From a virus (taxonomy: Duplodnaviria; Caudoviricetes), in IMG/VR virus record IMGVR_UViG_3300025030_000128, positions 1-56,546 of that record: a DNA stretch of 56,546 nucleotides; one strand, written 5' to 3'. Positions 1-14,787 of this stretch are shown here, one piece after another. Numbering within the stretch: position 1 is the first letter of the stretch; the number at the start of each line of letters is the position of its first letter. Both the position numbers and the translations under genes were made by a program. The notes under the pieces were generated by a model that ran no database searches, was not told the origin of the DNA, and saw nothing but the letters and a program-made list of their open reading frames with translations.

Positions 1-1852
1 CGCCGGCATCATCACCCAGGAAGGTATGAACGCCGCGGCAACGTATGCCCAACAGACCGGCAAGACGCGCAAGGCCCGGACCCTTGGTTATCTCAAGGGC
101 TGGAACCCGGCTGGCATGGTCCGCAACACCGAACGCATCGCCAGCCTCTTTGATTACGTCCTGGCTAACCCGGACAAGGCAGACGACAAAGCGGTTCAGG
201 ACGAAGCCCGCAAGCTGTTCAATGCTGACTATATTCCCTTCCTCAAAATCTTCGAGGCTTTTGGGATGACAGGCGGGCTCTACAAGCATCAGGACCGCAG
301 TCTTCAGACGGCGAGCGCCGGTAAGATGCAGTACCGCAGCAGCAAGCACCGCTTCGAGATTGACGCTCAGGGCAAGGGTCAATTCGTCAAGGGGAGCATG
401 GAGCTGCAGAAGGGTCTTCCGGCGATGCGCAAGTCGGTCAAGAAGATCTTCGAACAGACCTTGGAAGAAGAACCGAATGCTAAGATCTTTGCCTTCTTCA
501 AGGCGGGCGAGCTCTCCATCCTTGAAGGAACGTCGGCCTGGCTGATGGAATACTTCATCCCGCGCATGAAGATGGCGATGTTCGCCCGCGAGTACCTGAT
601 GAACATCACCCGCCACGAAGCGGCCATTGTTCAAGGGACCATGAGCAAACAGCAGGTCGCCATTTCGACCATGCTCTTCATTGAGAGCAAAGCTGGTGAG
701 CAGAACTGGCAGAACATGTGGCTGGAGCCGACGATGAAGACGGCGCTGCAGATGGCGTTCCGGTCCTTCACCTGGATCTTTGGTGACGTCTCAGCCATGA
801 GCAAGTCCGGCGAGGAGATGATCAAGTGGGGCTGGGTCAATGTCGTCCGTGGTAACGCCCTCAACGAGAATCGCTATAAGCTGACCGAGAAGGGGTGGTG
901 GGCAATCAACTCCATGGTCGGGCATCTCATGGTTCGGGCCGCTCTTGGCACTCTCTTCTATCTCTCAGTGGCTGGTGGGGATGACGACGAGTATGTGCCC
1001 GACGATCCCAATACGCCATGGTTGACGACCGCCCTCTTCCCCCGGATGAATAAACATGATCCTTACGACCGGCTGCAGTTCGGTTCGTACATCACGGAGA
1101 TGTATAAATATTCGTCACACCTGGGAGCCTTCGGGAATGAAGCCGACGTCAAGAAGTTGATCAGCGGTCGCTACTCGGATCTACTCAGCCAGGGCTACGA
1201 AGCTTTCGTCAAGGGCTCCGACTGGCAAGGGGTAGAGATTGTCTCGGAGAACGACAAGCCCGGGATCGCCTTTGGCAAGAAGCTCTTTCACACCCTGGCC
1301 GTTACCCCGATCTCTCTCGGATCGATTTATGACGACTACAAGGCGAAGGGATTCAGTGCCGAGCGGACGGCTCTTTCCTTTGCCGGCTTGACCAGCGCGC
1401 CCGCCACGTCCAAGCGGTCGCCGGCCACGAACAAAGCCTATGCCATTGCCCGTAGCGCCAGCGACGAATACACGATCACCGAGGAGAAGGCCGAACAGAG
1501 GCTCGACCTCAAGCGGGCAATGTTCGCCGTGCAGCAGGGTAACACTGCCATGGTCGACAAGCTGATTACAACCGGGGCCGTCTCTCCCGAACAGTACCGC
1601 AAAGCCCTGACCAAGATCCCGCTGATCAATGGCAAGCCCAACCTGCAATACCAGAACCCGCTGCAGCAGGTCCTCCGCCGCCTGACGATTGAACAAGCCT
1701 TGGAGGTCTGGGAAGAAATGAATGAGACCGAGAAGAAGCAGATGCGGGGCGCCATTGAGGCCAAGTACATCAACTCGGCCAACCGCAAGAACATGAGTGA
1801 CAATGTGCGGAAAGAGGTTCATAAGAAGATGAAGAAGTACGGCATTCTCTAA
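1..1852 (+). CDS. C-terminal part of the giant internal-virion/polyvalent protein (continues from 48841 across the circular junction)
   Basis: Frame is open from position 2. The window end (...GCG GTC TC) plus first base C gives TCC, in frame with GCC GGC ATC ATC ACC CAG GAA GGT ATG(26). Stop TAA at 1850-1852 is followed by a terminator. Confidence 0.8.
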   Translation, partial: AGIITQEGMNAAATYAQQTGKTRKARTLGYLKGWNPAGMVRNTERIASLFDYVLANPDKADDKAVQDEARKLFNADYIPFLKIFEAFGMTGGLYKHQDRSLQTASAGKMQYRSSKHRFEIDAQGKGQFVKGSMELQKGLPAMRKSVKKIFEQTLEEEPNAKIFAFFKAGELSILEGTSAWLMEYFIPRMKMAMFAREYLMNITRHEAAIVQGTMSKQQVAISTMLFIESKAGEQNWQNMWLEPTMKTALQMAFRSFTWIFGDVSAMSKSGEEMIKWGWVNVVRGNALNENRYKLTEKGWWAINSMVGHLMVRAALGTLFYLSVAGGDDDEYVPDDPNTPWLTTALFPRMNKHDPYDRLQFGSYITEMYKYSSHLGAFGNEADVKKLISGRYSDLLSQGYEAFVKGSDWQGVEIVSENDKPGIAFGKKLFHTLAVTPISLGSIYDDYKAKGFSAERTALSFAGLTSAPATSKRSPATNKAYAIARSASDEYTITEEKAEQRLDLKRAMFAVQQGNTAMVDKLITTGAVSPEQYRKALTKIPLINGKPNLQYQNPLQQVLRRLTIEQALEVWEEMNETEKKQMRGAIEAKYINSANRKNMSDNVRKEVHKKMKKYGIL

Positions 1853-1866
1853 GCCGGGACACAGAG

Positions 1867-1913
1867 CTGAAAAAAATACCCAGGCGCCCGCAAAGGGAAC
1901 CTGGGTATTTCAG
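1867..1913. terminator. Probable bidirectional intrinsic terminator between the convergent late and early arms
   Basis: AAATACCCAGG...CCTGGGTATTT stem with an A-run on the left and a T-run on the right, at the convergence of the two gene blocks. Confidence 0.8.
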
Positions 1914-1965
1914 TTTCAACCAACCGCACGACCGGACAAGCCGGTCAGCGGGCGGGCCGTTATGG
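1914..1965 (+). other. attC-like site (somewhat degenerate)
   Basis: TTTCAAC-caacc-GCA[C]GACCgg acaag ccGGTCAGC...GTTATGG; GGACAAGCC-type loop. Confidence 0.6.
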
Positions 1966-2169
1966 CGCGTCTACGCACGCGGTCAGGACACACCCGGACG
2001 CATCCAGATTGCCGTCATAGTGAAGCTCTACATCCTCGGCGGACCATACCGGGTCTCTTGCGCCTATGTCGAGTTGTAGTGTCACAACGATCTCTTCCGG
2101 GCTCTCCCCGCATTCTCTGGCACGTTCAATTGCCGAGTCCACAGCCTCTTTCAGCTCTTTCAAGTTCAT
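1960..2169 (-). CDS. Cassette-borne hypothetical protein (69 aa, acidic)
   Basis: ATG 2169 with GGAG RBS. Stop TAA is supplied by the GTTA core at 1959-1962. Cassette ends GTTATGGCGC (1959) / GCGCCATAAC (2192-2201). Confidence 0.75.
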   Translation of the reverse strand: MNLKELKEAVDSAIERARECGESPEEIVVTLQLDIGARDPVWSAEDVELHYDGNLDASGCVLTACVDAP

Positions 2170-2194
2170 AATTTCGTCTCCGTTGGAGGGTGCG

Positions 2195-2257
2195 CCATAA
2201 CCAGAAAAATACACTCTGGCTGCGCTGCGCTTGCAGGTGATTTACTAGCCGTTAGTT
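2195..2257 (+). other. attC-like site
   Basis: CCATAAC...AAAT[A]CAC...GTGATTT...GTTAGTT; CGCTGCGC loop. Confidence 0.75.
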
Positions 2258-2530
2258 TGCTTCCAACATGTCCAACTCGATATGCTGGAGTGCGCCCATG
2301 ATGACTGCCGCCTGATCTACGAGGTCGCGCCGGTCGCTGAACGTCATGTCGTCACGAAATTTACCGCTGAAACAGAGGGTATATTTATCCTGCTCAACCG
2401 GGGCCATAGTCCCGTCATGCCGTCCACAGCAAAAAAAACTCTGTTCGCCCTTGACCATCTCGGATTGTATTTGCCCGTATGGTTGGCACGTAGTTAGATT
2501 CCTCAAGCATTTTTCAGGGTATTTCAACAT
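2252..2530 (-). CDS. Cassette-borne hypothetical protein (92 aa, Cys-containing)
   Basis: ATG 2530 with AAGGA RBS; stop lies in the GTTA core. Cassette ends GTTAGTTTGC (2251) / GCAAACTAAC (2551-2560). Confidence 0.75.
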   Translation of the reverse strand: MLKYPEKCLRNLTTCQPYGQIQSEMVKGEQSFFCCGRHDGTMAPVEQDKYTLCFSGKFRDDMTFSDRRDLVDQAAVIMGALQHIELDMLEAN

Positions 2531-2553
2531 TTGATGTCCTTTCCGGCACCGCA

Positions 2554-2616
2554 AACTAACCAGTGCTCGGAAGCCGCCCGGTGAGGCCTGGCGGTCCACC
2601 GCCCATGCCGTTATCG
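2554..2616 (+). other. attC-like site (degenerate L boxes)
   Basis: AACTAAC...CCGCC/GGCGG inner stem...GTTATCG. Confidence 0.65.
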
Positions 2617-2618
2617 GT

Positions 2619-2837
2619 CTACTTCTCTCCCGGCAGCTTCTCATAATCCGACTTTCTGAGATCGGATAGCGCCCTTGTCAAATCCATACTCGCACGCTTG
2701 ATTGCTCCGGTTTCTCTCGGGTATGAATAGGTGTAACTATCAGGCTTCTTCTCTCCGAATTGGCCTTCAAGATTGCTGATTGTAACTTGCAGCCGCTTCA
2801 TTTCGGCCTTCACTTTTTCGAGTCTGATACGTTTCAC
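2619..2837 (-). CDS. Cassette-borne hypothetical protein (72 aa)
   Basis: GTG 2837 with AAGGAGG RBS. Cassette ends GTTATCGG (2610) / CCGATAAC (2864-2871). Confidence 0.75.
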   Translation of the reverse strand: MKRIRLEKVKAEMKRLQVTISNLEGQFGEKKPDSYTYSYPRETGAIKRASMDLTRALSDLRKSDYEKLPGEK

Positions 2838-2864
2838 AAATCCTCCTTGCTGGCTACCGGAATC

Positions 2865-2925
2865 CGATAACCAGCGCTGTGCAGCAGGCCGGAAAAGCCC
2901 GGCTGCTGACGCTTGATCGTTATGC
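2865..2925 (+). other. attC-like site
   Basis: CGATAAC...GT[G]CAGCA[G]GCCGG aaaagc CCGGCTGCTGAC...GTTATGC; two extrahelical bases on the left arm. Confidence 0.85.
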
Positions 2926-3159
2926 CCCGCCGGGAAAACATTCGTCCCCGACACAAATTACCTTGGTGTAGTCGTACTGTTTCAATACCGGGAGATTGAC
3001 CGGATCGTTTACCTGCAACCTCGACACTTCGCGCTCCAACCTGCGAATCTCGGCCCATATCTCTACGGGCGTAGCAACCCTTCCGTCGTCGTGGCGGATA
3101 GCTACGCAAACGGGGTCGTCTCTACCCAGATGTTTGTTGCATGGCGACAGATGTAGCAT
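2920..3159 (-). CDS. Cassette-borne hypothetical protein (79 aa)
   Basis: ATG 3159 with AGGAGG RBS; stop lies in the GTTA core. Cassette ends GTTATGCC (2919) / GGCATAAC (3174-3181). Confidence 0.7.
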   Translation of the reverse strand: MLHLSPCNKHLGRDDPVCVAIRHDDGRVATPVEIWAEIRRLEREVSRLQVNDPVNLPVLKQYDYTKVICVGDECFPGGA

Positions 3160-3174
3160 TTTACCTCCTGTCTG

Positions 3175-3231
3175 GCATAACCAGCGGGTACACGGGATCG
3201 CTACGCTCACCCGTGACCCTTGTCGTTATGT
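3175..3231 (+). other. attC-like site (canonical geometry)
   Basis: GCATAAC-cagcg-GGT[A]CACG-ggatcgctacgctcacc-CGTGACC-cttgtc-GTTATGT: 5-nt spacer, 8-nt L'' with an extra 4th base, 7-nt L', 6-nt spacer. Confidence 0.9.
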
Positions 3232-3237
3232 ATAAAA

Positions 3238-3456
3238 TTAATCGTCGTAATTCCACCAAGCATCTTTGATCCCAAATTCCACCGATATACCGTCTTCAGA
3301 TAGAGTAACATCATGTCCGTACTGGTTTTTCGCCTCTCTGTTACCCCTACAATCCGGTTCATCCTGAAACCCGCCTGTCAACCGTTCAATTTCAGCTTTA
3401 TCGGCCTCAGTTTCGGGGGTAATAATTAGAGTTCCATCGTCAAAAGATAATTTCAT
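3238..3456 (-). CDS. Cassette-borne hypothetical protein (72 aa, acidic, TPETEA motif)
   Basis: ORF with GGAGG RBS between the attC at 3175 and the half-site at 3493. Confidence 0.75.
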   Translation of the reverse strand: MKLSFDDGTLIITPETEADKAEIERLTGGFQDEPDCRGNREAKNQYGHDVTLSEDGISVEFGIKDAWWNYDD

Positions 3457-3492
3457 GTAGCACCTCCGAGATTTATGGGCATCAGTGCTTCA

Positions 3493-3518
3493 CTCACCCG
3501 TGACCATTGTCGTTAAAG
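3493..3518 (+). other. Right half of an attC-like site abutting the ruvC stop codon
   Basis: CTCACCCGTGACCATTGTCGTTA (3493-3515) is 22/23 identical to 3206-3228; its TTA is the ruvC stop. Confidence 0.75.
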
Positions 3519-3974
3519 ATTCTTTCTTCGGCCGTATTCCGCAAGCAAAATTGCCTCGGCTACCCCGTCATGAGGATTACGACATCGCGGCTGAACCAAC
3601 GTCGCCTTCGGGAAAAGATTTTCGCAAACAATAATGCTTGCCCCTTTTCCTTTGTCGGTCCCGGCCAGGATTGCCTTTTTCCATGCCTGCGGGGTTGGCT
3701 CAATAATCACAAAGTCGAGAGCCGTGCAAATACCGAGGATGATCCCACACCCCTTGCCGAACTTGAATGTACTGGCGACCCCCTGTTTCGGCATGGAGTG
3801 GACAAGTTCGACGACAACCGTAATATTTTTGTAAGTCATTCCAGCCGCGCGGAGAAAGTCGGATATCCCCCTGCGTGTTTCCGGCATGGGAATGTGCTCA
3901 AGAAGAAGACCGTCTTCCGTCAGAACAGCGAGCCCGCCCTTTTGTCCGGGGTCTATCCCAATATATGCTTTCAT
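3513..3974 (-). CDS. ruvC: RuvC-like Holliday junction resolvase
   Basis: YIGIDPG..GG, VVVE, FKFG..CG and HDGVAEAILLA motifs. Confidence 0.85.
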   Translation of the reverse strand: MKAYIGIDPGQKGGLAVLTEDGLLLEHIPMPETRRGISDFLRAAGMTYKNITVVVELVHSMPKQGVASTFKFGKGCGIILGICTALDFVIIEPTPQAWKKAILAGTDKGKGASIIVCENLFPKATLVQPRCRNPHDGVAEAILLAEYGRRKNL

Positions 3975-4456
3975 TTTCCCTCCTGGTAGGAAAGACCCTG
4001 ATGTAAGAAGTGGGCGAGCAGATCAACAAACTTCTCGTTCTCCCTCAGCTCGTGCTCACCCATGAAGAAAAGGGCGAAATGGATTGTCTCGTGCCAAAGC
4101 GATTCTTCCTGCAGCGTCGGATGGATGTCGCCGGCAAGCAGAATGCGCAGGTTGGGGTAGTCGCTGTAGCCGCCCAGTTGTTTGTCAGCGAAGAGGGTGG
4201 GCATGATCAGCACTTCGATCTTCAGACCGGCAAGAGAGATGTTTTTGGGTATTGTCATTGGATTCCTTTTTATCGAGATAAATAAAAGCGGACGCTTAAA
4301 TTCTTCGAAAAGCCTTCTGCTCTCTTCTTTACGACTTTTGACATAAACATCTTTGAACCACTTATTAAAGCTTTCTTGCTCTGCGCGGTCTATCTTTGCG
4401 AGTCTTTTTTGCCAAGCATAAGGCCACCAGAAGAATCCCAATATTTTATCGAGCAT
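3971..4456 (-). CDS. Small HExxH zincin-like protein (true start possibly 4258)
   Basis: LWHETIH followed by EKFVD; resembles common phage metallopeptidase-like proteins from MTIPKNI onward. Confidence 0.6.
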   Translation of the reverse strand: MLDKILGFFWWPYAWQKRLAKIDRAEQESFNKWFKDVYVKSRKEESRRLFEEFKRPLLFISIKRNPMTIPKNISLAGLKIEVLIMPTLFADKQLGGYSDYPNLRILLAGDIHPTLQEESLWHETIHFALFFMGEHELRENEKFVDLLAHFLHQGLSYQEGK

Positions 4457-4468
4457 TACACGGCCCCC

Positions 4469-4801
4469 TTATTTTTCCAGTTCAAGCCTCTGCTGCCGCT
4501 CGTGCTCCGGGATAATGTCGTGGTCGACTTCTTCCCCGGTGTCCTGGCGGAAGAGAGTGCGAGTGCCGGCGGCCCAGTTGTAATCCCACTGGCACTCGAC
4601 GCTGCGCTGCTCTTCTCCGCTGTCGACGATCTTAGAGAGGCATTCGGCCCGCTCGGAGTAAGGCTTGATGGCGGCGTTGATTTCCTTGCGCTTCTCTTCG
4701 AGCTTGCCCTTCTCGACCAGGCAGGCCGCCAACTCCTTTCCGTAGGCTTCTGACTCTCTTAGGGTGATCTTGACTGGCAGGTAGCGTGTGGCGGTTTGCA
4801 T
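4469..4801 (-). CDS. Hypothetical coiled-coil phage protein
   Basis: ATG 4801 with AAGGAGG RBS (MQTATRYLPV...). Confidence 0.7.
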   Translation of the reverse strand: MQTATRYLPVKITLRESEAYGKELAACLVEKGKLEEKRKEINAAIKPYSERAECLSKIVDSGEEQRSVECQWDYNWAAGTRTLFRQDTGEEVDHDIIPEHERQQRLELEK

Positions 4802-4823
4802 TGTTGTTCCTCCTTGGTTGGGG

Positions 4824-5807
4824 TTAAAATAGACAAGGTTCGAGGTCGGCAGCCAGAGGCTTTCCTTCGGCAGCCGAGAGGCGACGGTTCTGGGCACAGA
4901 CTTCGGAAACGTCGCAATGCTCCGCGCAGCGGGTGCGACCAGACCACCGTTCGACAATCTCGTACTCGGTGTGCGATAGGCCCTTCTCGTTGAAGATGGC
5001 GGTCGCCTCGGCCATGGTATCGGCCTTGCGGTAGGCACGATCCCGACTACCTCGCTTGTAGATCGCCACGTCCATCAACCGCTGCCACATTTCTTTCTTG
5101 CTGCAGGGTGGCAGCTCTTCGTCTGAGAGGTGTTCGCAGTTGAGGATAGCCTGCACCCTTGCCTTAACGTACATCTCCTGCTCAGCGAAGCTCCAGAGCC
5201 TCAGGGGGACCTTGATGATCGAGGCGGGCGGGTAGTTCTGTGGATCCTTGGCGAGCTCGCTCTTCTTCCAGTCTCCGATGAAGGCCCAGACATTCAACCT
5301 CTCGACGGTCTTTCCTTTGAGTCGAAGAAGGTAGGCATATGTGTTTTGGCCGGCTTCCCAATCCTCGTAACCCTCTTTTTTCCCCAACAGAATCTTGTAG
5401 ACCATACAGTTTTTGTAGTCCCGGATCTCGGGCTCTTCGAAGCAATCCAGCTTTCCAGAGACCACACGACCGAGGACGTCTGCGTAGATACGCTCCTCAA
5501 CCACAGAGTTCATGGTTGGGTGCCAGCTATCTTCGAGGATCTGATGACTGACGCTGCCGCGGAACTGCCAGTATTTGTCGATGACGTCGAAGGTCTTAAG
5601 CTTGTCGGGGTGCCGGCGCTTGAGCACGGTCATTTGGGTTGGAGCGGTCAGAGTCGAGGCGGATTCGTCGAAACTTTCTTCGTCTGTGTTGGTATATCGG
5701 TCCTTCAAAATTGCTCGACAGATTTCCGGAGGTAAGGAATGTTTGTTTGTATAGCGCCGGCCGCCTACTTCAAATATGCCGGTGTAATCGATTGCTGCTT
5801 CCGTCAT
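4824..5807 (-). CDS. PD-(D/E)xK Cas4-like exonuclease
   Basis: RGSVSH, SGKLD...IRDYK, QNTYAYL and C-terminal RC..HC.....C motifs. Confidence 0.8.
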   Translation of the reverse strand: MTEAAIDYTGIFEVGGRRYTNKHSLPPEICRAILKDRYTNTDEESFDESASTLTAPTQMTVLKRRHPDKLKTFDVIDKYWQFRGSVSHQILEDSWHPTMNSVVEERIYADVLGRVVSGKLDCFEEPEIRDYKNCMVYKILLGKKEGYEDWEAGQNTYAYLLRLKGKTVERLNVWAFIGDWKKSELAKDPQNYPPASIIKVPLRLWSFAEQEMYVKARVQAILNCEHLSDEELPPCSKKEMWQRLMDVAIYKRGSRDRAYRKADTMAEATAIFNEKGLSHTEYEIVERWSGRTRCAEHCDVSEVCAQNRRLSAAEGKPLAADLEPCLF

Positions 5808-5817
5808 GGTTTTCTCC

Positions 5818-6753
5818 CTAGAAGAGTTGGTCGGCCAGTTGGCCGTGAAAGTGGTTCTCTGTTTTTGAACAGGCGCATCCACCGATCAGGTCAGCCAGTC
5901 GATAGCTGACGTGCGGGCCGTCAAAGGTAAACCCCCTCTTGCCCTTGTTGCAGTTGTCGTTCAGTGCCATCCAGTCGAGCTTGTCCGGATGGGTGAAGGA
6001 CATCTTGTTGGCGACCAGGTATTCGGTGATGGATCCCGGGCGGCCGTCTCTTTTTCTTGACCGCCTCCAGAGTCCTTCGATCTTCCGGTTGTAGGGTTCG
6101 GCCACCACTTCCACCCGCACGATGCGGCCGAGCTCGTCTTCTGAGAGATCGTCCAGTTCGTGCGGCTTCATGTTTGGGCAGAAGATGCAGCTCGACTTGG
6201 GCGGGACCGGCAAACTGGCTTCGACAATGCGGGCTTTGCACTCTTCCCGATCCCATCCCCAGTCCTGTAGAGGGTAGACGTTGTCGCAGCCCTGAGTGGC
6301 ATGGGCTTTGTCGCCGGCCCGCAGTTGGCGGTATTCCTCCCCCGCCTCGAAGCCGATCGCTTTGATGATGTGACCGCGAATGTTTTCCTTCTCCCACCGT
6401 CTCTGCGGCTGAATCTTCCACTTGTCCGTGCAGCTGCCGCGATTGAACGTGGCCCCCGGAAGAGTGGCGTTCATCACCATGTTCCCTTCGATAGTCGTGT
6501 AGGGGCTATACTTCGGGATGTATTTGACCACGGTGACCGGCGGGAAGTGATGCTTGGCCAAGTACTCTTGTATGATTGGAAGGTAATTGTAGGTTGACTG
6601 CTTCTCTGCCCCGACGTCCGCGAAGAGAATGAAATCCGGGCGGATCCCCCTGGCTACGTAGCCGGCAATGATAGCGGTCGAGTCAACCCCGAGCCCATAG
6701 GCCAGTCCGAGGATCGACTTCTGATTGGTCTCAAACAGGTCAATCTGGCTCAT
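5818..6753 (-). CDS. PAPS-reductase-like PP-loop (adenine nucleotide alpha hydrolase) protein
   Basis: AYGLGVDST PP-loop, FADVGAE, CTDKWKI.P, YPL.DWGW.R and PPKSSCIFCP motifs. Confidence 0.8.
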   Translation of the reverse strand: MSQIDLFETNQKSILGLAYGLGVDSTAIIAGYVARGIRPDFILFADVGAEKQSTYNYLPIIQEYLAKHHFPPVTVVKYIPKYSPYTTIEGNMVMNATLPGATFNRGSCTDKWKIQPQRRWEKENIRGHIIKAIGFEAGEEYRQLRAGDKAHATQGCDNVYPLQDWGWDREECKARIVEASLPVPPKSSCIFCPNMKPHELDDLSEDELGRIVRVEVVAEPYNRKIEGLWRRSRKRDGRPGSITEYLVANKMSFTHPDKLDWMALNDNCNKGKRGFTFDGPHVSYRLADLIGGCACSKTENHFHGQLADQLF

Positions 6754-6898
6754 CTCTTGGCTCCTGGAGGGTGGGGTAGGAAAGACGTTGTGGCTGGTAG
6801 GCGGGCTTGAGTGGTGGGGCTGTCCTGGTATCGCAGTCACCGCAGCATTCCTGCTGGTTGCACATGCGAGCCCCAGTCTTGGGGCAGATACGGCACAT
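6740..6898 (-). CDS. Small Cys-rich hypothetical protein
   Basis: MCRICP...CCGDC with AAGGA RBS. Confidence 0.45.
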   Translation of the reverse strand: MCRICPKTGARMCNQQECCGDCDTRTAPPLKPAYQPQRLSYPTLQEPRDEPD

Positions 6899-6917
6899 GA
6901 TGTATTCCTTTCTTCGG

Positions 6918-7235
6918 CTATTTGTCCAGCGGGATCTCTCCTGTGTAGAGATTGTGGTACTCCTTCTCCAGATCGACCGCGGCTGCATTCAAGACGTCAA
7001 TGAAGACATCCTGGTTGAGAACTAGGTACTTTTTGGAGAGCGTCTGCATCTGTGTATGGATCTCCGCCTTGGTGTCGGCCTGATAGCTGGCGAGCTGCTG
7101 AACGCAGACATCACCTCGGCTGTTGGCGGTTTCGAGGACTCCTCTGTGAATGCGCATAGAAATGCCTGCGCCGACGACGAAGCCAACGAACAGGCCGACA
7201 ATGAAGGCTGTGGATAGGTGTTTTGATACGATCAT
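6918..7235 (-). CDS. Hypothetical membrane-anchored protein
   Basis: N-terminal hydrophobic stretch AFIVGLFVGFVVGAGI; ATGA overlap with the upstream gene. Confidence 0.65.
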   Translation of the reverse strand: MIVSKHLSTAFIVGLFVGFVVGAGISMRIHRGVLETANSRGDVCVQQLASYQADTKAEIHTQMQTLSKKYLVLNQDVFIDVLNAAAVDLEKEYHNLYTGEIPLDK

Positions 7236-7468
7236 TTGTCCTCCATCTTGGCGCGGATAGCGGCGGCAATACATTTATGGTCTGTGCAATAAACCGGCCC
7301 TTCGTCTGCCCCAATGTCAGCAATCACCGCCGCTTCCCTAAGTCCTCCAAGACGACCGGCGTTGAAGCAGTTCCTACGCACCTCCGTTTGATGCCCGTCG
7401 AGAAGCAGGGCGTATTCGTTACTATAGTGTAGTTTTCCGTACTCTTTGGCGAACTTTTCAAACATCAT
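7232..7468 (-). CDS. Hypothetical protein (AGRLxGLREAA...AIRAKME type)
   Basis: GGAGG RBS; paralogous to 7975..8271. Confidence 0.65.
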   Translation of the reverse strand: MMFEKFAKEYGKLHYSNEYALLLDGHQTEVRRNCFNAGRLGGLREAAVIADIGADEGPVYCTDHKCIAAAIRAKMEDK

Positions 7469-7603
7469 CTCTACCTCCCGCGCCATAACCATGACGCTGC
7501 AATTAGGTTAATTTTCTTCGTCCTTCCATCCAAGAAAGCGGGCGAGGAGTTCGGTCATTTCTTCGGCTCCCAATGTGTCGGGTTAATTGGTAGACCGATC
7601 ATT

Positions 7604-7972
7604 TCATTGAGGCAGTCGCAGCACGGCGAGTTCGGCGCGGAGCGCCTTTAACTCTTCCCGGTAGTTTTCAACCGCCAGCAATTCGCTGGCAAGGTTTTCA
7701 TACTCCTCGGTCATGGCGGCGAGAGCGGATTCGGCGGCTTCGGCACGAGCAAGGCAATTCGCGGCGGTCGTTGACATTCTCGCGTTATCATCTTCCAGCC
7801 GCTCAATCTCCTCCTGCGCCGCGCTGAGTTGCGCGGTGAGGGATTCGGTGAGTTTAGCGGCGAAGCCCTTCAGGTATGAGGAAGACGATCCTCCGATTAG
7901 TACCTCGGGGATGTATTGGTGAATCCCAGATTCGTATACAGCCTTCATAATCTGTTCTTCCGTTGGCCTCAT
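7604..7972 (-). CDS. Hypothetical coiled-coil protein
   Basis: Ala/Glu/Leu-rich heptads (RAEAAESAL); in operon context. Confidence 0.7.
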   Translation of the reverse strand: MRPTEEQIMKAVYESGIHQYIPEVLIGGSSSSYLKGFAAKLTESLTAQLSAAQEEIERLEDDNARMSTTAANCLARAEAAESALAAMTEEYENLASELLAVENYREELKALRAELAVLRLPQ

Positions 7973-7974
7973 CT

Positions 7975-8271
7975 CTATTCCTCCATCTTGGCGCGGATAG
8001 CGGTTTTATGTATCGCAACGACATCGACCTCTTGCCCGATGTAGGGCGTCAGAGCGAACGATACCAATTCTAGTCGTCCTTCTCCACCAACCTTTTTCTG
8101 TACCGGCTGAGAGAATATCCTGATGGCGTTATTTGGTTCTCCTTCTGCCGCCTCCCTGAGTCCTTCGAGACGGCCAGCGGTGAAGGCGCGCTTCGCAATC
8201 TCCCGGCCTCCCGGCCACGGTCGGTTGTCTGACTCGGGGCGGGAAAATGGCCACCACTCGGCGAATGTCAT
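7975..8271 (-). CDS. Hypothetical protein (AGRLxGLREAA...AIRAKME type)
   Basis: AGGAG RBS; paralogous to 7232..7468. Confidence 0.65.
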   Translation of the reverse strand: MTFAEWWPFSRPESDNRPWPGGREIAKRAFTAGRLEGLREAAEGEPNNAIRIFSQPVQKKVGGEGRLELVSFALTPYIGQEVDVVAIHKTAIRAKMEE

Positions 8272-8387
8272 GGCTTGTTCTCCTGTTCTTTAAGCGTCCA
8301 GACGCGGACGAAGCGGCCGTGGTTGCTCTTCCAGGTTGAGGCTTGGGTACGAAGCACGATCCATTCGTCCTTGGAAAAGATTGCTCT
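8268..8387 (-). pseudogene. Start-less gene fragment directly after the HNH stop codon
   Basis: RAIFSKDEWIVLRTQASTWKSNHGRFVRVWTLKEQENKP* ends in an ATGA overlap with the next gene but has no start of its own. Confidence 0.4.
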
Positions 8388-8957
8388 TTAATAAAGGGCT
8401 GAATAAATGACAGCACGTTCATCGCTATAGCCGCGTTTTATTCTGTCATAGATTCTGTCTCTCTTAATTCCGTAATGTTCCGCCCATTGAGTTATATTTT
8501 TTGTTACGCCCTCAATTGTAATTAAGTGGCATTGTCGGCTATTGTTACCTTGTTCTTTTTTTGTAGACCACTTAACATTTTCCGGCTCATAGTTTCCGTC
8601 GTTTTTAATGCGGTCAACTGAATGATCTCTTGATGGACGCTGACCAATATCTTTTTTGAATGCTAGGAAATCGTTCTTCCATTTATCGCAAACGACAATT
8701 CCCCTTCCGCCATAATTATTATAGTGCACGTGATTCTTATTATAGCAACGCTCTAACATTTTCGACCATAAACGGAAAAGGTTTGTCTTTGTTTCGTTGT
8801 GCTTTACCCTGTTACAACCACAGGATTTTGAAAGCCCGCGGGTAAGCGAGCTTTTGTATATATCTTTGACGACACCGCAATCGCATTTGCACGTAAGGTG
8901 ATGTTTCTTTGTGCTAATCCCGATGACTAAGAGTTTTCCATATTTATTTCCTATCAT
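8388..8957 (-). CDS. Free-standing HNH-type homing endonuclease
   Basis: GNKYGKLLVI, CKCDCG, SCGC, YGGRGIVVC and HSVDRIKNDGNYEPENVKW motifs; visibly AT-rich. Confidence 0.85.
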   Translation of the reverse strand: MIGNKYGKLLVIGISTKKHHLTCKCDCGVVKDIYKSSLTRGLSKSCGCNRVKHNETKTNLFRLWSKMLERCYNKNHVHYNNYGGRGIVVCDKWKNDFLAFKKDIGQRPSRDHSVDRIKNDGNYEPENVKWSTKKEQGNNSRQCHLITIEGVTKNITQWAEHYGIKRDRIYDRIKRGYSDERAVIYSALY

Positions 8958-9306
8958 CTTCTTGCTCCCGGAGAAGAAGTTCGAGGCGGGCGAGGCTATT
9001 CCAGACCTCATGAGAGAGATGTAGGAGCCCACTGTCCTGAGCATGGGTCTCTCCCTTACAGATGTCCAGCTCGTGTCTCATTTGGGCGTCTGCGTAGCGG
9101 AGCTGCCCGTTGGGGATGGTGTGCCAGGTATCCCATCCGTGCTTCGTGGCGCCGAACTCGGAGACTCTGGCGACTTGCTCCAGGGCTCTAGGAAAGTAGC
9201 GCAGGACAGAGTGGATGTGGGCCTTGCCGTTGTCATGTTTGGCGCCAGGGTCGACAAGGAAAGATTTCCATGGATACAGTTTGGCGTCCTCTTCTTGGTC
9301 GCTCAT
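8944..9306 (-). CDS. dATP/dGTP diphosphohydrolase (DUF5664-like)
   Basis: GAKHDNGK, V.EFGA.KHG, RY.DA.MRH and DSGLLHL.H..WN motifs. Confidence 0.8.
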   Translation of the reverse strand: MSDQEEDAKLYPWKSFLVDPGAKHDNGKAHIHSVLRYFPRALEQVARVSEFGATKHGWDTWHTIPNGQLRYADAQMRHELDICKGETHAQDSGLLHLSHEVWNSLARLELLLREQEDDRK

Positions 9307-9572
9307 TTGTTCCTCGCTGCAAGATAGTGGTAGGAGGGCTCAGAAGGCTTCCAGATGCGGCCGTCCGCTCCCTTGTAGTAAGGACGCGGGCAGCCCTTGC
9401 GATTGCCTCCACAACAGTCCTGGGCGTACTGCTTGGGGTTGAAGAGATGACGGAGGCCTTCGGCGTGGACGATCTGGGTGAGGGTGGAATGATTGGTGCC
9501 AATAACGAGGGCGGTCGCCCTGATGCTCATGCCAAGGCCGGCATAATATGTGATCTCTTCTTTGAGGGTCAT
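9303..9572 (-). CDS. Small HTH-like protein
   Basis: GMSIRATALVIGTNHSTL helix-turn-helix-like pattern. Confidence 0.55.
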   Translation of the reverse strand: MTLKEEITYYAGLGMSIRATALVIGTNHSTLTQIVHAEGLRHLFNPKQYAQDCCGGNRKGCPRPYYKGADGRIWKPSEPSYHYLAARNK

Positions 9573-9772
9573 ATTGGCAACGTTTCGATCTCGTCGGCGG
9601 CCCAACGAAGGTAGTCCGCGTACTCTTCCTTCGACCGCCACCTGGTCATATTGTCGAGAGAAACGACGAGGAAGCGGCGGCTGCCTGACATTTCGACCGT
9701 GACGGCGAGAGACTGGTAAGTTTCAGCTTTGTTGCCGCGGTCTGCGGTGAAGCGTTGCTCGGTGAGTTTCAT
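9569..9772 (-). CDS. Hypothetical protein
   Basis: 67 aa ORF ending LRWAADEIE; overlaps the next gene by 4 nt. Confidence 0.6.
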   Translation of the reverse strand: MKLTEQRFTADRGNKAETYQSLAVTVEMSGSRRFLVVSLDNMTRWRSKEEYADYLRWAADEIETLPI

Positions 9773-9774
9773 GG

Positions 9775-9822
9775 TTTCAACTTTCTCATGGAGCGGACAA
9801 GCCGCTCATGCTTTAGTTATCC
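9775..9822 (+). other. attC-like site (48 bp, minimal)
   Basis: TTTCAAC-tttct-CAT[G]GAGC-ggacaagcc-GCTCATG-cttta-GTTATCC. Confidence 0.85.
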
Positions 9823-9824
9823 TT

Positions 9825-10196
9825 CTATTTGCCTCGGAACATATCACCCACAATTTTAAACGCTTGTTCCAGCCGCTGCATTGCTTGTTCGGCCTGTAAT
9901 CGCTTGCGTTCAGCCTTGGCTACCCTTCGTTTTTCCACATTTTCAGGCTTCCAGTATGTGGCGTGGCGTTTATCCTGGATTGCCTTTTTCTTGGTTGCAA
10001 TAGATTCCTGAATCGTTGCCTCTTTTTCATAATCAACCATCCGCCGCGCCTGGTTGCCCTCTTCACAAACAGTGCAAAGAGCATAGTCCAGTTGGTTGTG
10101 ATATGTCGGCACCACGCAGCAATCCTCACAGACAGGTTCACCGCAAATATGACAGGTGAAATCGGTTTTATTCTCTTCGCAAACGTGGCAAATCAT
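9825..10196 (-). CDS. Cassette-borne Zn-finger plus charged coiled-coil protein (123 aa)
   Basis: CHVC, CHIC, CEDC and CTVC motifs; GGGAG RBS. Confidence 0.75.
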   Translation of the reverse strand: MICHVCEENKTDFTCHICGEPVCEDCCVVPTYHNQLDYALCTVCEEGNQARRMVDYEKEATIQESIATKKKAIQDKRHATYWKPENVEKRRVAKAERKRLQAEQAMQRLEQAFKIVGDMFRGK

Positions 10197-10226
10197 GAAA
10201 ACTTCTCCCTCGATTGCCACCCCGAA

Positions 10227-10277
10227 GGATAACAATCGGCTGGACGGGTCAAGCCCGTCATCCTCTAGCCGTTATGG
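10227..10277 (+). other. attC-like site
   Basis: GGATAAC-aatcg-GCT[G]GACG-ggtcaagcc-CGTCATC-ctctagcc-GTTATGG. Confidence 0.8.
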
Positions 10278-10311
10278 CGCAAGGCCAGCATCGACCCTGC
10301 GCCACGTTCAG

Positions 10312-10530
10312 TTAAAGCAAAATACCCCAATCTTCGGACAGCATATCGAGATTGTTCGGGTTCCACGGAAACAGTTTTCCGGCAACGTCGCTCATGTAAA
10401 TGTACGAGTGTCCCATTTTGCTGTTTTCGTCGCAAACCTGAAGAGCTAACCACATTCCCTTGCCATTCCAGCCATCACGACTTACTTTGCTTCCGAGCTT
10501 GAGTGCTTCCAACGCTTGTCCGAAATTCAT
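10312..10530 (-). CDS. tad2: DUF2829 / Tad2-like anti-defence nucleotide sponge (72 aa), cassette-borne
   Basis: MNFGQALEALK.G.KV.R.GWNGKGMWL ... PW.P...DMLSEDW signature; AAGGAG RBS. Confidence 0.85.
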   Translation of the reverse strand: MNFGQALEALKLGSKVSRDGWNGKGMWLALQVCDENSKMGHSYIYMSDVAGKLFPWNPNNLDMLSEDWGILL

Positions 10531-10563
10531 ACTGTTCTCCTTTGTAGTTTGGTTGCCCATGCG

Positions 10564-10622
10564 CCATAACCAGCGCATAGACACCGGCTCCCGCTGGTCG
10601 CGGGTCATGCTTGTCGTTATCC
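10564..10622 (+). other. attC-like site (canonical geometry)
   Basis: CCATAAC-cagcg-CAT[A]GAC[A]CCG-gctcccgctggtcg-CGGGTCATG-cttgtc-GTTATCC. Confidence 0.9.
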
Positions 10623-10988
10623 CTGATGGTGTAAGTAGCGCCCAATCTTAGAGTGCTTCACTTGCCGGGCTGCCTGAATCCGGCCAGAATCAATATCCTT
10701 CCCTGCATATTGCCCAGCGGCTAACAGGTCTAGCGCGGCCAGCACATCACCGCATTCGCGCTCCAACAGCTCCCTATTAGTTGGGCCTCCGTCAGGGTGC
10801 CGGGACTCGTAGCCATGCCTGAGAATTTTCCCGACAGCCTGAATTACCTCGCCGCATTCTTCCGCCAATAGTGCAAGTCGTTCGACCTCCGCAAGGGAAA
10901 GGAACGGGATAACCAGTGAATCGACCGGAGGTTTATCCTTGTCGCACTGGCACTGCATGGTTGATGTATCTACCGTCGATTTACACAT
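10617..10988 (-). CDS. MazG-like nucleotide pyrophosphohydrolase
   Basis: LAEECGEVIQAVGKILRHG ... LERECGDVLA: EExxE...ExxD all-alpha NTP-PPase pattern. Confidence 0.8.
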   Translation of the reverse strand: MCKSTVDTSTMQCQCDKDKPPVDSLVIPFLSLAEVERLALLAEECGEVIQAVGKILRHGYESRHPDGGPTNRELLERECGDVLAALDLLAAGQYAGKDIDSGRIQAARQVKHSKIGRYLHHQG

Positions 10989-11342
10989 TTCGTTCTCCCG
11001 GTCATTCACAGACCCGTTAAATAGATCCCTGGCCCCATTAAATCTCCGCATGGTGTCTCCTGACCTTCCGAGACCTGCGCAGAGAAACTTAGACCGGCGG
11101 CATATAGACTGATTGCTGGCCGGGAGACTCACATACCCTGTATCGACCGCCCGTATCGTGGGCTAAACGCTCCGCCTTCCCCTTGTGGTGTTGGGAAGAA
11201 CCATTACAGCCATGCGTATGATAGGTCGTTTGCTCCGGGGCTAAGAGCGGGTAAGCGGTCTTTGGTGCGACTTCCTTGCCAGCCTTCCGTCCTCAGTTTG
11301 GGACATTTGGTGAGGCCCACTGGCGAGGCCAAGAGCGGGCAA

Positions 11343-11449
11343 AGCAAAACCCGCAAAACCACTTCGCCTTGGACGGGCAGAGAAGGGATTTACGGGTGCG
11401 GGTTTTGCTGTGTTCAGTGTTTGGAAGTTTACAACAGATGCCCGTCCAA
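11343..11449 (-). promoter_or_regulatory. Structured leader with competing pairings (attenuator-like)
   Basis: 13-bp inverted repeat 11343-11355/11397-11409 overlaps an 11-bp inverted repeat 11369-11379/11439-11449. Confidence 0.55.
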
Positions 11450-11459
11450 AGGCAAGGAC

Positions 11460-11488
11460 ATGTTACTTAGGGCTGAAAAAAAAGTCAA
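11460..11488 (-). promoter_or_regulatory. Sigma70-type promoter facing cassette array 2
   Basis: TTGACT-17 nt-TAACAT on the minus strand. Confidence 0.65.
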
Positions 11489-11504
11489 ACTTTATCTTTG
11501 GCGA

Positions 11505-11765
11505 TCAGAGATGACAGAGAATGTTGCGGACGTTTTTGCGGGATTTGCGAACGAAGGAAGGGCTACAACCTTGGCAATCCCACTGCCAGGCTCCTTCTTT
11601 CAGCAAGGCAACGAGCGTGTCCTTGACAAGCCTGTAGGTGCCTTCTTCTTCGGCGGCAACATCGATGCAGCCGGTGGCGATTACCTTGCGGGCGTTTTCT
11701 CTGGCCCGCTCGAAAGATTTTTTCAGTAGTTCGTCAACCTTGTCGAGAAATTCTTGGTCAGTCAT
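11505..11765 (-). CDS. Hypothetical protein
   Basis: ATG 11765 with GAGGAG RBS (MTDQEFLDK...). Confidence 0.65.
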   Translation of the reverse strand: MTDQEFLDKVDELLKKSFERARENARKVIATGCIDVAAEEEGTYRLVKDTLVALLKEGAWQWDCQGCSPSFVRKSRKNVRNILCHL

Positions 11766-12093
11766 TGTTTTTCTCCTCTGGTCGTTTGATTTCGCCAACT
11801 GTGCTGCCGTTGAAGGTGTAGGCGACGATCGGCGGAACAACGGTGGTGCCGAGCAGATCCTTCACTTCCCGGGCCGAGATCGACACGCCGCGGTCGGCGT
11901 ACTTGTCGACCAGCACTGGATCGTTCGAGACGAAGGCGACCGCCTTGTCGTTCTGATACAAGGCCGCTATCACCTTCTTGTCAGTCGAGAGCATGTAGTC
12001 AACCACACTCTTTCCCAATAGGTCGTTGGCCGGGATTGGGTTCCAGTGCGGCCGGTTGTCGATGATCTCCAGCTGTTTGATTTCGACTCTCAT
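11758..12093 (-). CDS. Hypothetical protein
   Basis: 111 aa ORF with AAGGA RBS in the replication cluster. Confidence 0.65.
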   Translation of the reverse strand: MRVEIKQLEIIDNRPHWNPIPANDLLGKSVVDYMLSTDKKVIAALYQNDKAVAFVSNDPVLVDKYADRGVSISAREVKDLLGTTVVPPIVAYTFNGSTVGEIKRPEEKNND

Positions 12094-12105
12094 CTTTTCC
12101 TTTCT

Positions 12106-12576
12106 TTAGGTGGCCAGATACTTGACCGCATCAACAAATGACATCTGATCACGATCGATCAGTGTATCAAGGGCTGAGAAGTAGCGGTTACAGGACCCAC
12201 ACCAGGCGATCCCCTTCTTGCTCATGAAGGTGAGCGACGGCCGCTTGTCGTCGTGGCACCAGGCGAAGGCTTTCCCGAAGCGGTCGAACTGAATCACCGC
12301 GGTCACAGGGACGGCCCGGGCCGCCTCGATCATGGCGTCGGTAATCTGGTTGGTCTGTTGGGGTACAGAAAACTCTCCGCCTTCGTTCTTAGTCAGGTAG
12401 GCGATCTCGTCGAGGATTTCTTTGGCGAAGTGGAGAGCAACCGGAGAACCGTCGAGGATCAGGGCGCCGAGGTAGGGGGTGAGGAATCTCTTTCTCATGC
12501 GACTAGCGGCGAGCTTGTTGATCTCGAACTCCTTGGCCTTGCGGAAGGTAAGCGCGGGGTCTTTATTGGCGAACAT
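12106..12576 (-). CDS. CHC2 (primase-type) zinc-finger protein
   Basis: WCHDDKRPSL..WCGSC...D....MSFVDAVKYL resembles the DnaG zinc-binding domain; no TOPRIM domain. Confidence 0.7.
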   Translation of the reverse strand: MFANKDPALTFRKAKEFEINKLAASRMRKRFLTPYLGALILDGSPVALHFAKEILDEIAYLTKNEGGEFSVPQQTNQITDAMIEAARAVPVTAVIQFDRFGKAFAWCHDDKRPSLTFMSKKGIAWCGSCNRYFSALDTLIDRDQMSFVDAVKYLAT

Positions 12577-12584
12577 GGATTCTC

Positions 12585-12749
12585 CTACTGATCGAGCGGA
12601 TGCCCTTCCGCTTCGTGGTCCTCAACACAGCATTCGCAGTAGTACTTCCCTCCGTCCACCGCATAGACCTCTTCTGGCTGAATGCGGTCCCGGCAGTCGA
12701 GACAAATCTTTTCGGTGTCGGAGGTACGGCGGGCAAGATTTGGTATAAT
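12585..12749 (-). CDS. Small Zn-finger ORF with an atypical (ATT/ATA) start
   Basis: ICLDC...YYCECC; AAGGAA upstream but no ATG. Confidence 0.35.
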   Translation of the reverse strand: MIPNLARRTSDTEKICLDCRDRIQPEEVYAVDGGKYYCECCVEDHEAEGHPLDQ

Positions 12750-12761
12750 TATTTCCTTTTT

Positions 12762-12974
12762 TTAAGTAGGTCTTCCATCGCACATTGGGCAAGCGTGAGA
12801 GCCTGGGTTTCTTTTGAAATACTCAATGATTCGTAAAGAACCTCCACCTTCAGCGCATGGATCGCCTTCGCAGTAAGCACAAGTTCCATTCAGGCCGCGA
12901 GGATAATCTGCGATATAAAGAACTTCGAGCTGTTCTTTTGTTCCATCTCCTGAGAGATAATCAACTACTGACAT
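12762..12974 (-). CDS. Small Cys-rich hypothetical protein
   Basis: CAYCEGDPC...CPMCDG; AT-rich. Confidence 0.6.
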   Translation of the reverse strand: MSVVDYLSGDGTKEQLEVLYIADYPRGLNGTCAYCEGDPCAEGGGSLRIIEYFKRNPGSHACPMCDGRPT

Positions 12975-12986
12975 ATTTTTTTCCTT

Positions 12987-13850: not shown

Positions 13851-13939
13851 GGGGTTCCTCCCAGTAAGGTTTCAATCCACTGACCGGGGCAGATGATAAC
13901 AAAGGTTGGATGGAAAATTCCACCGTTGGTTTTTTGACG

Positions 13940-14709: not shown

Positions 14710-14724
14710 GGTGTCTCTCCTTTG

Positions 14725-14761: not shown

Positions 14762-14787
14762 GTTTGACTTCTGGTTGTAGGAATGGA

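Follow-up and report, generated by a model that had tools for sequence, protein, structure and literature searches.

We found two arrays of small-gene cassettes separated by integron-type attC sites in a phage genome with no recognizable integron integrase gene (intI), and in both arrays the cassette genes point the opposite way to those of canonical integron cassettes. The genome is the IMG/VR virus record IMGVR_UViG_3300025030_000128, which comes from a groundwater metagenome and was analysed here over its whole length of 56,546 bp (hereafter, the window). The reading that we favour, and hold to be probable, is that this podovirus-like phage carries two integrase-less cassette arrays of mirror polarity, whose cassettes are former circles that were inserted into resident attC sites by an integron integrase (IntI) acting in trans. 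The most interesting content of this study is the mirror polarity itself, together with the evidence that many phage arrays and phage-encoded integrons share it.

Cassette Ends and attC Sites

The first array spans positions 1914–3518, with sites A to F and five cassettes, and the second spans 9775–11022, with sites G to J and three cassettes, giving eight cassettes (c1–c8) in total. On the + strand, sites A–E and G–I each open with ...AAC and close with GTTA..., as does site J, and site F is without the AAC. As the core criterion for attC we used a site of 50–130 nt bounded by an inverse core R'' (RYYYAAC) and a core R' (GTTRRRY), and this pattern was found in the window. Each cassette holds one small open reading frame (ORF), on the minus strand every time. 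An earlier note on this DNA, made from the sequence by a model, had proposed integron-style attC arrays from eight AAC...GTT sites that alternate with single small ORFs. All eight sites lie at the positions it gave and one ORF per cassette was found, but its listing had missed sites F and J as well as the reversed polarity of the ORFs.

In all seven cassettes that could be tested, the two ends are exact reverse complements of each other (10, 10, 8, 8, 10, 11, and 8 nt, spaced 233–408 nt apart); c5 stood outside this test because site F is decayed. The seven end pairs quoted in the earlier note, 8–11 nt long, were thus all exact, and the pairing joins the two ends of one cassette and not the arms of one site, as it had claimed. 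Site B, for instance, has GCGCCATAAC as its R'' arm but GTTAGTTTGC as its R' arm, so that nothing pairs inside the site. Four pairs of at least 10 nt within 100–500 nt were observed, against a mean of 0.33 and a maximum of 3 in 300 first-order Markov simulations, none of which reached four. This 10-mer count took over as the test against chance because a "chained 8-mer" statistic was weak (five links observed; 4 of 300 simulations reached five). With the likelihood that we give to the reading as a whole, the cassettes would be former circles that recombined at the G|TT of attC, presumably through an IntI.

The identity of the sites was also assessed with a covariance model, R1, for which only attC-like sites of other contigs were used, 11 in total (from five IMG/VR contigs that a pattern search had turned up and one contig of a metagenome-assembled genome, MAG). 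With filters off, R1 matched sites E (56 bits), I (50 bits), D (36 bits), and H (22 bits) in the window, all at full length on the + strand, and gave these four no score on the minus strand. It therefore finds four of the eight sites of the earlier note, plus site J weakly at 9.2 bits, and does not match A, B, C, and G at E ≤ 10. The case for the latter four is made by the footprint on both of their sides, by their folds, and by their resemblance to sites of other arrays. R1 had a single significant match in 50 kb of plasmid R100, the aadA1 attC (26.8 bits), on the aadA1 coding strand. The model also found four attC sites beside the chromosomal intI of a Desulfuromonadaceae-type genome (L254), and its two best matches in phage TJE1 lie after orf2 and orf3, at the published cluster of attC sites lacking integron integrases (CALIN). 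Nothing was matched in 965 kb of negative control sequence (80 unrelated phage loci), and an Rfam scan of the window returned no family, Rfam having no attC family.

Hairpins with an unpaired central spacer and an extrahelical base on one arm are clear in E, G, D, I, A, and J, and less so in B, C, and H. The first six carry the extra base on the + strand 5' arm and have a 3' spacer at least as long as the 5' spacer, as does the aadA1 attC on its coding strand. Minimum free energy (MFE) z-scores proved a poor test, because that of site I is not significant despite its 50 bits. Given that the complementary cassette ends, the attC geometry, and a covariance model that also matches bona fide attC sites all agree, the sites are, as judged from their sequences, integron-type attC cassette arrays of the CALIN kind. 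A CALIN has been defined as at least two attC sites on one strand within ~4 kb and with no intI nearby (Cury et al., 2016; PMC4889954), and the window has two such clusters, both on the + strand, without intI. Footprint, geometry, covariance model, and the structural genes of a phage on the same record together bear out the earlier proposal of such arrays in a phage.

Two other searches for arrays are recorded here for completeness. A pattern scan of genome contigs with 18 specified bases was set aside, as its 120 matches were mostly due to chance by our estimate; only one contig (L105) had two matches and a real array. Chained end-complementary pairs that open with GTTAG... and are separated by gaps of ~90–100 nt were seen in L048 (5904–6469 and 7326–7889) and L063 (1548–2945), and may be attC arrays of another family that R1 misses.

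Orientation of the Cassette Genes

Canonical cassettes have their ORF on the top strand of attC, with the attC downstream; in the window, all eight cassette ORFs lie on the attC bottom strand instead. The + strand is assigned as the top strand because R1 matches on it and because the spacer and extra-base geometry is that of the aadA1 attC. The sequence ATAACCAG occurs five times on the + strand of the window and not once on the minus strand. The minus strand is thus both the recombinogenic bottom strand and the sense strand of the genes, and the cassettes are therefore mirror-oriented relative to a canonical cassette.

The reversal was seen in every phage context in which the attC family of the window turned up. 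Across seven phage or prophage contigs, the window included, the longer ORF is on the bottom strand in 39 of 42 cassettes (25/27, 10/11, and 4/4). Besides the window, the reversed cassettes are found in L083 of G002 (4/4), in L085 of G003 (5/5), in G005, whose 74.9-kb genome has two arrays and a terminal repeat of 127 bp (4/6), in G001:C92, a phage contig binned in a Desulfuromonadaceae MAG (4/4), in the phage contig G040:C222 (10/11), and in a prophage that resides in the G030 chromosome, from the Desulfuromonadaceae-type family (4/4). At the protein level, the phages with reversed arrays are unrelated to that of the window, save for one virion protein in G040:C222. The controls have the canonical arrangement: 18 of 21 rows in L254 are on the top strand, with a ribosome-binding site and ATG after each attC, both cassettes of L263 are oriented likewise (2/2), and TJE1 and R100 are also canonical.

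The two arrays of G005 (L230, G005:C1:20001–40000; arrays 1840–4268 and 17130–18850) are separate and have four attC sites each. No tyrosine recombinase or IntI was found in this 74.9-kb genome with terminal repeats.

Mosaicism at the attC Cores

Cassette c7 resembles a cassette of phage contig G001:C92 (L105) over 38 nt at one end (97%) and 84 nt at the other (88%), attC included, and the ORFs between these ends are unrelated. This similarity sets in no more than 5 nt from the G|TT of site H and stops at the GTTA of site I. The conserved unit runs from the cassette start to the attC on its right, as expected with the + strand as the top strand.

Further breakpoints came from a comparison with assembled contigs, not reads, of the same groundwater community in two samples (X1 and S2). 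A 2.9-kb contig has the frame of c7 with 375 other letters replacing the Tad2-like ORF described below, and departs from the window just past 10619; it has depths of 20 and 232 in the two samples, in which the phage has 12 and ~4, respectively. The replicon with this altered c7 frame (window 10286–10619; both ends and attC I) is ~50-fold more abundant than the phage in the second sample. The match of another contig starts precisely at 10272, where the first T follows the G of site H. A J-like element with its bounds at 10910 and 11019 was found in two contigs, and a B-like attC is present in yet another contig of the same metagenome. Uncovered S2 bins were disregarded in the contig layout, as were the joints 2239->2867 (side 24) and 10930->10995 (side 22). 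The earlier note had asked whether breakpoints between relatives fall at the cores: they do in these contigs and in L105, but the one backbone relative that we found (L233) is too distant to be informative. The breakpoints at the cores are indirect evidence of recombination by an integron integrase, and from these sequences we infer that the cassettes of the window may be mobile at present.

Possible Sources of an Integrase

Six-frame searches of the whole record with PF00589 and TIGR02249 gave no match, in line with the earlier claim that no tyrosine recombinase is present, and no intI lies beside the arrays. A complete integron has intI next to its array, and the window lacks this arrangement. 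The recombinase would have to act in trans, as an IntI encoded either on the host chromosome or by another phage or a prophage that shares the cell. Supply by the host is plausible but unproven; of 81 genomes from the likely host family, that of G001, 38 have an IntI above the curated cut-off. A phage-borne IntI is an equally good source.

One such case is G040:C222, a 58-kb phage contig in a Desulfuromonadaceae-type genome, with genes for a portal, a capsid protein, an internal virion protein, and RecT and with a 3392-aa ORF. With 316.7 bits, its IntI exceeds the cut-off of 265, and it is 41% identical to a chromosomal IntI over 323 residues. The gene (L262, i.e., G040:C222:1–9000, frame 4889–6250 on the minus strand) lies between two arrays of the window's attC family, and all nine R1 matches there are on the strand opposite intI (9/9). 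The junction TAATCAATG|GTTAT, located ~50 nt upstream of this intI, is attI-like and recurs at the left end of the L085 array; it was not seen in the parts of the window that were read, where no dedicated search for it was made. This contig holds a complete integron, with cassette ORFs co-oriented with intI and with a Dam-type methyltransferase among the cargo on its left side.

A remnant was found in G001:C92, in which an IntI is reduced to its last 53 codons, which share 71% identity with the chromosomal type and are joined in frame to an attC right arm (L215, 2106–2315, + strand). The RHS codons of this remnant come from the attC arm, and it looks like the result of a microhomology deletion that removed attI and most of the intI of a phage-borne integron. 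The first cassette of the same array is duplicated (341–637 and 1806–2102).

Searching IMG/VR with the G040 IntI returned 45 viral contigs (L276–L320), and all 10 IntIs tested from these pass the TIGR02249 cut-off (265.3–374.5 bits). At these loci, all 21 R1 matches lie on the strand opposite intI, 20 of them upstream of the gene, and the longer ORF of the 25 adjacent cassettes is on the intI strand in 21, on the other strand in three, and tied in one. Given that the attC sites lie opposite intI and most cassette ORFs lie on the intI strand, the platform is canonical with respect to its attC sites and the cargo is reversed. Five of these intI genes have terminase, portal, or helicase genes as neighbours, and DNA methyltransferases are encoded by two of the cassettes adjoining intI. 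As side observations, integron integrases are common on viral contigs, judging by the 10 of 10 tested among these 45, and intI is often just upstream of terminase genes (L276, L278, and L285).

Chromosomal IntI-like genes with long N-terminal frames were considered as partners of the arrays and rejected, since five loci had no R1 match or cassette chain within ~10 kb. Such genes are present in many genomes of the Desulfuromonadaceae-type family (L268–L271 and L214; genomes G019, G044, G066, G014, and G001); they score ~340–355 bits, have a frame of 450–500 aa with an N-terminal extension, and are In0-like. No array was found beside the gene for the full IntI of G001.

Proposed Resident attC Sites and Content of the Arrays

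Followed in the orientation of their attC sites, both arrays open with a complete attC to the left of which there is no cassette, A in the first and G in the second. These two sites share the R'' GTTTCAAC and the loop GGACAAGCC, motifs found at 1913/9774 and 1934/9795 and together nowhere else in the window. At their right ends, the arrays close with G|TTAAAG (array 1) and G|TTAAAT (array 2). Such an arrangement could have been built by successive attC × attC insertions into two copies of one resident phage attC, whose left part would stay at the left end of the array and whose last bases would come to lie beyond the attC of the oldest cassette. In this order of insertion, the newest cassette would adjoin A or G and the oldest would be at the far end; site F would then be the oldest site of array 1, which fits its decay. 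The arrays of L083 and L085 have simple left junctions instead of a resident attC.

In what follows, all sites are given on the + strand and all cassette ORFs on the minus strand. Site A (1914..1965), the left-most site of array 1 and a candidate resident ("docking") attC, folds with a 6-bp stem and has more unpaired bases on the + strand 5' arm. Cassette c1 (1960–2251) contains an ORF of 69 aa at 1960..2169. Site B (2195..2257) is diverged, with a weak hairpin, a fold z-score of ~0, and end pairs on both sides, and resembles L105_3 and the G040 sites that open with AACCAGAAAAAT/AACCAAAAAGAT. It is followed by the c2 ORF (2252..2533; 93 aa), by site C (2554..2616), which has cassette-end pairs on both sides and no significant fold z-score, and by the c3 ORF (2619..2837; 72 aa, GTG start). 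Site D (2865..2925) is matched by R1 at full length with 35.9 bits (E 5e-8) and has a minus-strand fold z-score of -3.2, and the c4 ORF (2920..3159) encodes 79 aa. Site E (3175..3231), with 56.4 bits for R1 (E 3e-14), folds with textbook geometry, namely an R box, an unpaired spacer of 4/5 nt, and a stem whose + strand 5' arm has one extra base. The c5 ORF (3238..3456; 72 aa) is closed by site F (3477..3518), a decayed attC with R' GTTAAAG at 3512–3518, no significant fold, and no R1 match. Site F has kept its 3' arm and R', the AAC and part of the 5' arm are gone, and its R' overlaps the stop codon of the RuvC-like gene that comes next on the map.

In array 2, the left-most site G (9775..9822) is the second copy of the candidate resident attC; its fold has a z-score of -2.7 and one extra base on the + strand 5' arm. 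The c6 ORF (9825..10196) encodes a Cys-rich protein of 123 aa with no significant family, and, taken together, the ORFs of c1–c6 matched no family in Pfam or PHROGs. Site H (10227..10277) scores 22.1 bits with R1 (E 8.5e-4). The c7 ORF (10312..10530; 72 aa) encodes a Tad2-like protein (Thoeris anti-defence 2-like domain), which matches PF11195 over residues 1–70 of 72, and thus over the whole domain, with 84.2 bits against a cut-off of 25 (E 9e-24); its anti-Thoeris activity is only predicted. Site I (10564..10622; 50 bits with R1) is near-identical to sites in two other phage contigs, L105 and L083, at 88–93% identity. The c8 ORF (10617..10991; 124 aa) encodes a MazG-like nucleoside triphosphate pyrophosphohydrolase (PF03819, E 1.4e-4; phrog_4856, E 1.4e-18), and its start codon is inside the loop of site J. 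That site (10906..11022) is a long attC that closes c8, with R'' GGGATAAC, R' GTTAAAT at 11016–11022, and the R1 match of 9.2 bits at 10910–10950; in its MFE fold, an interrupted stem of 12 bp has a bulge of one base on the + strand 5' arm. The contig comparison and the fold showed the long element and led us to abandon the view that J is a short, decayed site.

Phage Genome and Likely Host

From ~25 kb on, the + strand of the window encodes a large terminase (TerL), a portal/adaptor, a major head protein, an internal virion protein, and a tail fibre. A leftward run from ~22 kb to 1.9 kb holds replication and recombination genes, including those for a DnaB-like helicase, an exonuclease, a RuvC-like resolvase, a PAPS-reductase-like protein, and a DUF932 protein. 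The gene for the RuvC-like Holliday-junction resolvase (3513..3974, minus strand; phrog_1770, E 2e-28) is a backbone gene, located upstream of array 1 with respect to transcription. The ~480 nt (11023–11500) upstream of array 2 in the same sense are without a convincing ORF and could hold a promoter or a regulatory RNA; Rfam gave nothing there at gathering thresholds.

The record is classed as "linear" and 77% complete by CheckV. A 3'-open ORF at 48841–56544 and a 5'-open ORF at 2–1852 are in the same frame across the ends of the record and would be joined to ~3185 codons. Because these two end-open ORFs share one frame, the genome is probably circularly permuted and complete. The sole family match of this giant end-spanning ORF (48841–56546 plus 1–1852) is a weak GGDEF-like stretch at residues 570–713 (25.4 bits, cut-off 23.8), and the 3392-aa ORF of the unrelated phage G040:C222 is in a similar place.

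A capsid protein 59% identical to that of the window was found in 2 of 124 genomes of the Desulfuromonadaceae-type family, and one 16.7-kb contig of this family has a syntenic structural module. The prophage with a reversed array in G030 also belongs to a chromosome of the family. The phage is thus probably associated with Desulfuromonadaceae-type hosts. When 20 kb of the window were compared with the phage collection by megablast, no match was obtained, and the C-terminal part of the giant ORF led to no relatives. The 80 loci found through the RuvC-like protein were rejected as relatives, having only that gene in common with the window and no R1 match, and were reused as the negative control mentioned above. 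The only backbone relative found, L233, was reached through the PAPS-reductase-like protein; it has 30–73% amino acid identity and no attC at the matching place.

Alternative Explanations

Several results weigh against the reading that these are reversed cassette arrays served by an IntI in trans. Four of the sites (A, B, C, and G) are missed by R1 at E ≤ 10, B, C, I, and J have fold z-scores short of significance, site F is decayed, and site J is atypical (spacers of 2 and 6 nt and a coding loop). The strand assignment is based on one home-made model and on geometry, not on the curated model of IntegronFinder. Two cassettes of G005 and one of G040 have a slightly longer ORF on the top strand, and the attC family of the window is also found canonically oriented in one non-phage contig (L263). 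With the record rated as 77% complete and "linear," intI could sit in the missing part. The contigs show mosaicism at the cores and not ongoing excision, no circles being visible in contig data, and L233 is too distant for mapping cassette gain and loss.

Some of these results would also be expected if the arrays were fossils, captured once, with the cassettes now fixed as accessory genes and the attC sites left as unused relics. The record has no intI, F is decayed, J is partly coding, B folds poorly, and no excision product is visible in the contigs, the only material compared. We nevertheless consider such a fossil state unlikely. Complementary cassette ends of 8–11 nt matter only in the excised circle, yet they are perfect in 7 of 7 cases; sites E, I, and D still score 36–56 bits; site I is 88–98% identical to sites of phages with other cargo; and several other contigs of the community break exactly at the cores. 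It is quite unlikely that the phage has an IntI of its own in a part of the genome absent from the record, as G040:C222 would suggest. The completeness estimate leaves space for one, and phage-borne IntIs with the window's attC family or with reversed cassettes are common (G040:C222 and the 45 IMG/VR contigs, with 10 of 10 tested passing), but the end ORFs in one frame (~3185 codons, comparable to the 3392-aa ORF of G040:C222) fit a circularly permuted complete genome. Furthermore, intI adjoins the arrays in the phages that have one, whereas here the 6 kb between the arrays and both flanks are without it.

The remaining explanations dispense with integron recombination in the phage. Hairpins of the AAC...GTT type stand in every intergenic gap of two operon-like gene runs, as transcription terminators or RNA-processing sites might, and attC sites have been cited as weak terminators (Qi et al., 2023; PMC9892861). 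A function of this kind, which could coexist with recombination, accounts neither for the pairing of the R'' of one site with the R' of the previous site nor for the match to bona fide attC sites and the breakpoints at the cores, and as the explanation of the sites we regard it as highly improbable. An assembly chimera that joined a bacterial integron to a phage contig is barely credible. The S2 depth is 112 in the bin 10147–10680 against 3–5 elsewhere, and a repeat shared with an abundant replicon therefore exists; however, an X1 contig of even depth (12.3) spans 1–10298 and another spans 10286–16000, the arrays stand at two places between phage genes of similar GC content, and the same layout is present in six other phage contigs. 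Two arrays of mirror polarity on resident attC sites, with IntI supplied in trans, thus remain our preferred interpretation.

Relation to Known Systems

Integrase-less attC arrays in phages are of an already known kind, because Qi et al. (2023; Front Microbiol, PMC9892861) reported phage CALINs, 17 of them among 10,705 NCBI phage genomes. As described in that paper, IntI1 recombines attC sites of virulent phages in trans, those of the TJE1 CALIN among them, and TJE1 and PH101 have the typical bacterial structure. The published arrays are like those of the window in having attC sites with small ORFs, no intI, and counter-defence cargo (DNA methyltransferases there, Tad2-like and MazG-like proteins here). 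TJE1 differs in that R1 places its attC sites on the sense strand of the ORFs, whereas the ORFs of the window's family are antisense to the attC top strand. The main text of Qi et al., as distinct from its supplementary tables, does not discuss the polarity of ORFs and attC sites ("opposite" and "antisense" have 0 occurrences), and does not describe two arrays on two copies of one resident attC, as proposed for the window.

The sedentary chromosomal integron L254 shares with the window the footprint at the cassette ends, the attC geometry, the small ORFs of unknown function, and near-identical attC sites that accompany unrelated cargo (for the window, site I compared with L083d and L105). However, its intI is adjacent and divergent and its ORFs are on the attC top strand, whereas the window has no intI and reversed ORFs. 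In the inverted integron-integrase group of Treponema and others (Cury et al., 2016; PMC4889954), intI and cassette ORFs point the same way, as in the phage integrons related to the window. By the description given there, intI of that group is oriented as its attC sites are; in the phage integrons found here, intI is opposite the attC top strand (9/9 R1 matches in L262 and 21/21 in the IMG/VR loci) and it is the ORFs that are reversed. The window, having no intI, does not belong to this group, and neither do the related phage integrons.

Reverse-oriented cassettes with promoters of their own, such as those for toxin–antitoxin systems, are a minority within the canonical arrays of large chromosomal integrons, and their ORF is antisense to attC. 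The phage arrays differ in being reversed as a whole and in being read, we propose, by phage transcription. IntI-mediated insertion of cassettes outside att sites (attG), described in a preprint (Loot et al., 10.1101/2022.09.11.507474), is a route into genomes without attI. By comparison with that route as described, the arrays of the window open with a full resident attC and not with a simple secondary site; L083 and L085 have simple left junctions. Our literature search, the supplements of Qi et al. being outside its scope, turned up no paper that describes either reversed phage cassette arrays or a phage-encoded integron class. What is new here is the mirror polarity shared across phage arrays, the bounding of arrays by candidate resident attC sites, the Tad2-like and MazG-like cargo, the presence of an own IntI in unrelated phages with the same attC family, and the passing of the integron-integrase cut-off by all 10 genes tested from the 45 viral contigs.

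Implications of the Mirror Polarity

The leftward transcription of the phage itself would express mirror-oriented cassettes, and the cargo would consist of phage accessory or counter-defence genes (Tad2-like, MazG-like) together with small unknown proteins. As to why the polarity is reversed, we can offer only conjecture. A docking attC of a given polarity in a phage would allow only reversed cassettes to be expressed, which could give rise to a separate phage cassette pool. Reversal would silence phage counter-defence cassettes, such as those for Tad2-like proteins, MazG-like proteins, and methyltransferases, in bacterial integrons, and bacterial cassettes, a good number of which carry defence genes, in phages. 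In addition, where genes are co-directional with replication or heavily transcribed, the bottom strand would serve as the lagging-strand template or be the non-template strand, and might then be single-stranded more often, favouring its folding during a short infection.

More broadly, phages could keep a mirror-polarity integron system of their own, a proposal that we put forward tentatively and to which we give somewhat less than an even chance. In such a system, intI and attC would be canonical and all ORFs would be on the bottom strand, with transcription running towards attI and intI and not from the cassette promoter Pc; some phages would keep an IntI and others would borrow one in trans. 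The two cassette pools would use one recombinase and be insulated in expression, because the orientation of insertion is fixed by the attC bottom strand.

Cassettes of bacterial integrons have recently been shown to store anti-phage defence genes (Darracq et al.; preprint "Mobile Integrons Encode Phage Defense Systems"). If phages do run such a mirror-polarity system for counter-defence genes, both sides of the arms race between phages and bacteria use one recombination machinery, and the strand polarity of a cassette decides who can express it. Three questions become testable: by what means phages exchange accessory genes with such precision, whether a virulent phage exploits the IntI of its host or of a co-resident element, and why cassettes are oriented as they are. 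The arrays would also provide a rule for mining small phage counter-defence genes from metagenomes, namely to look on viral contigs for attC-flanked ORFs on the attC bottom strand.

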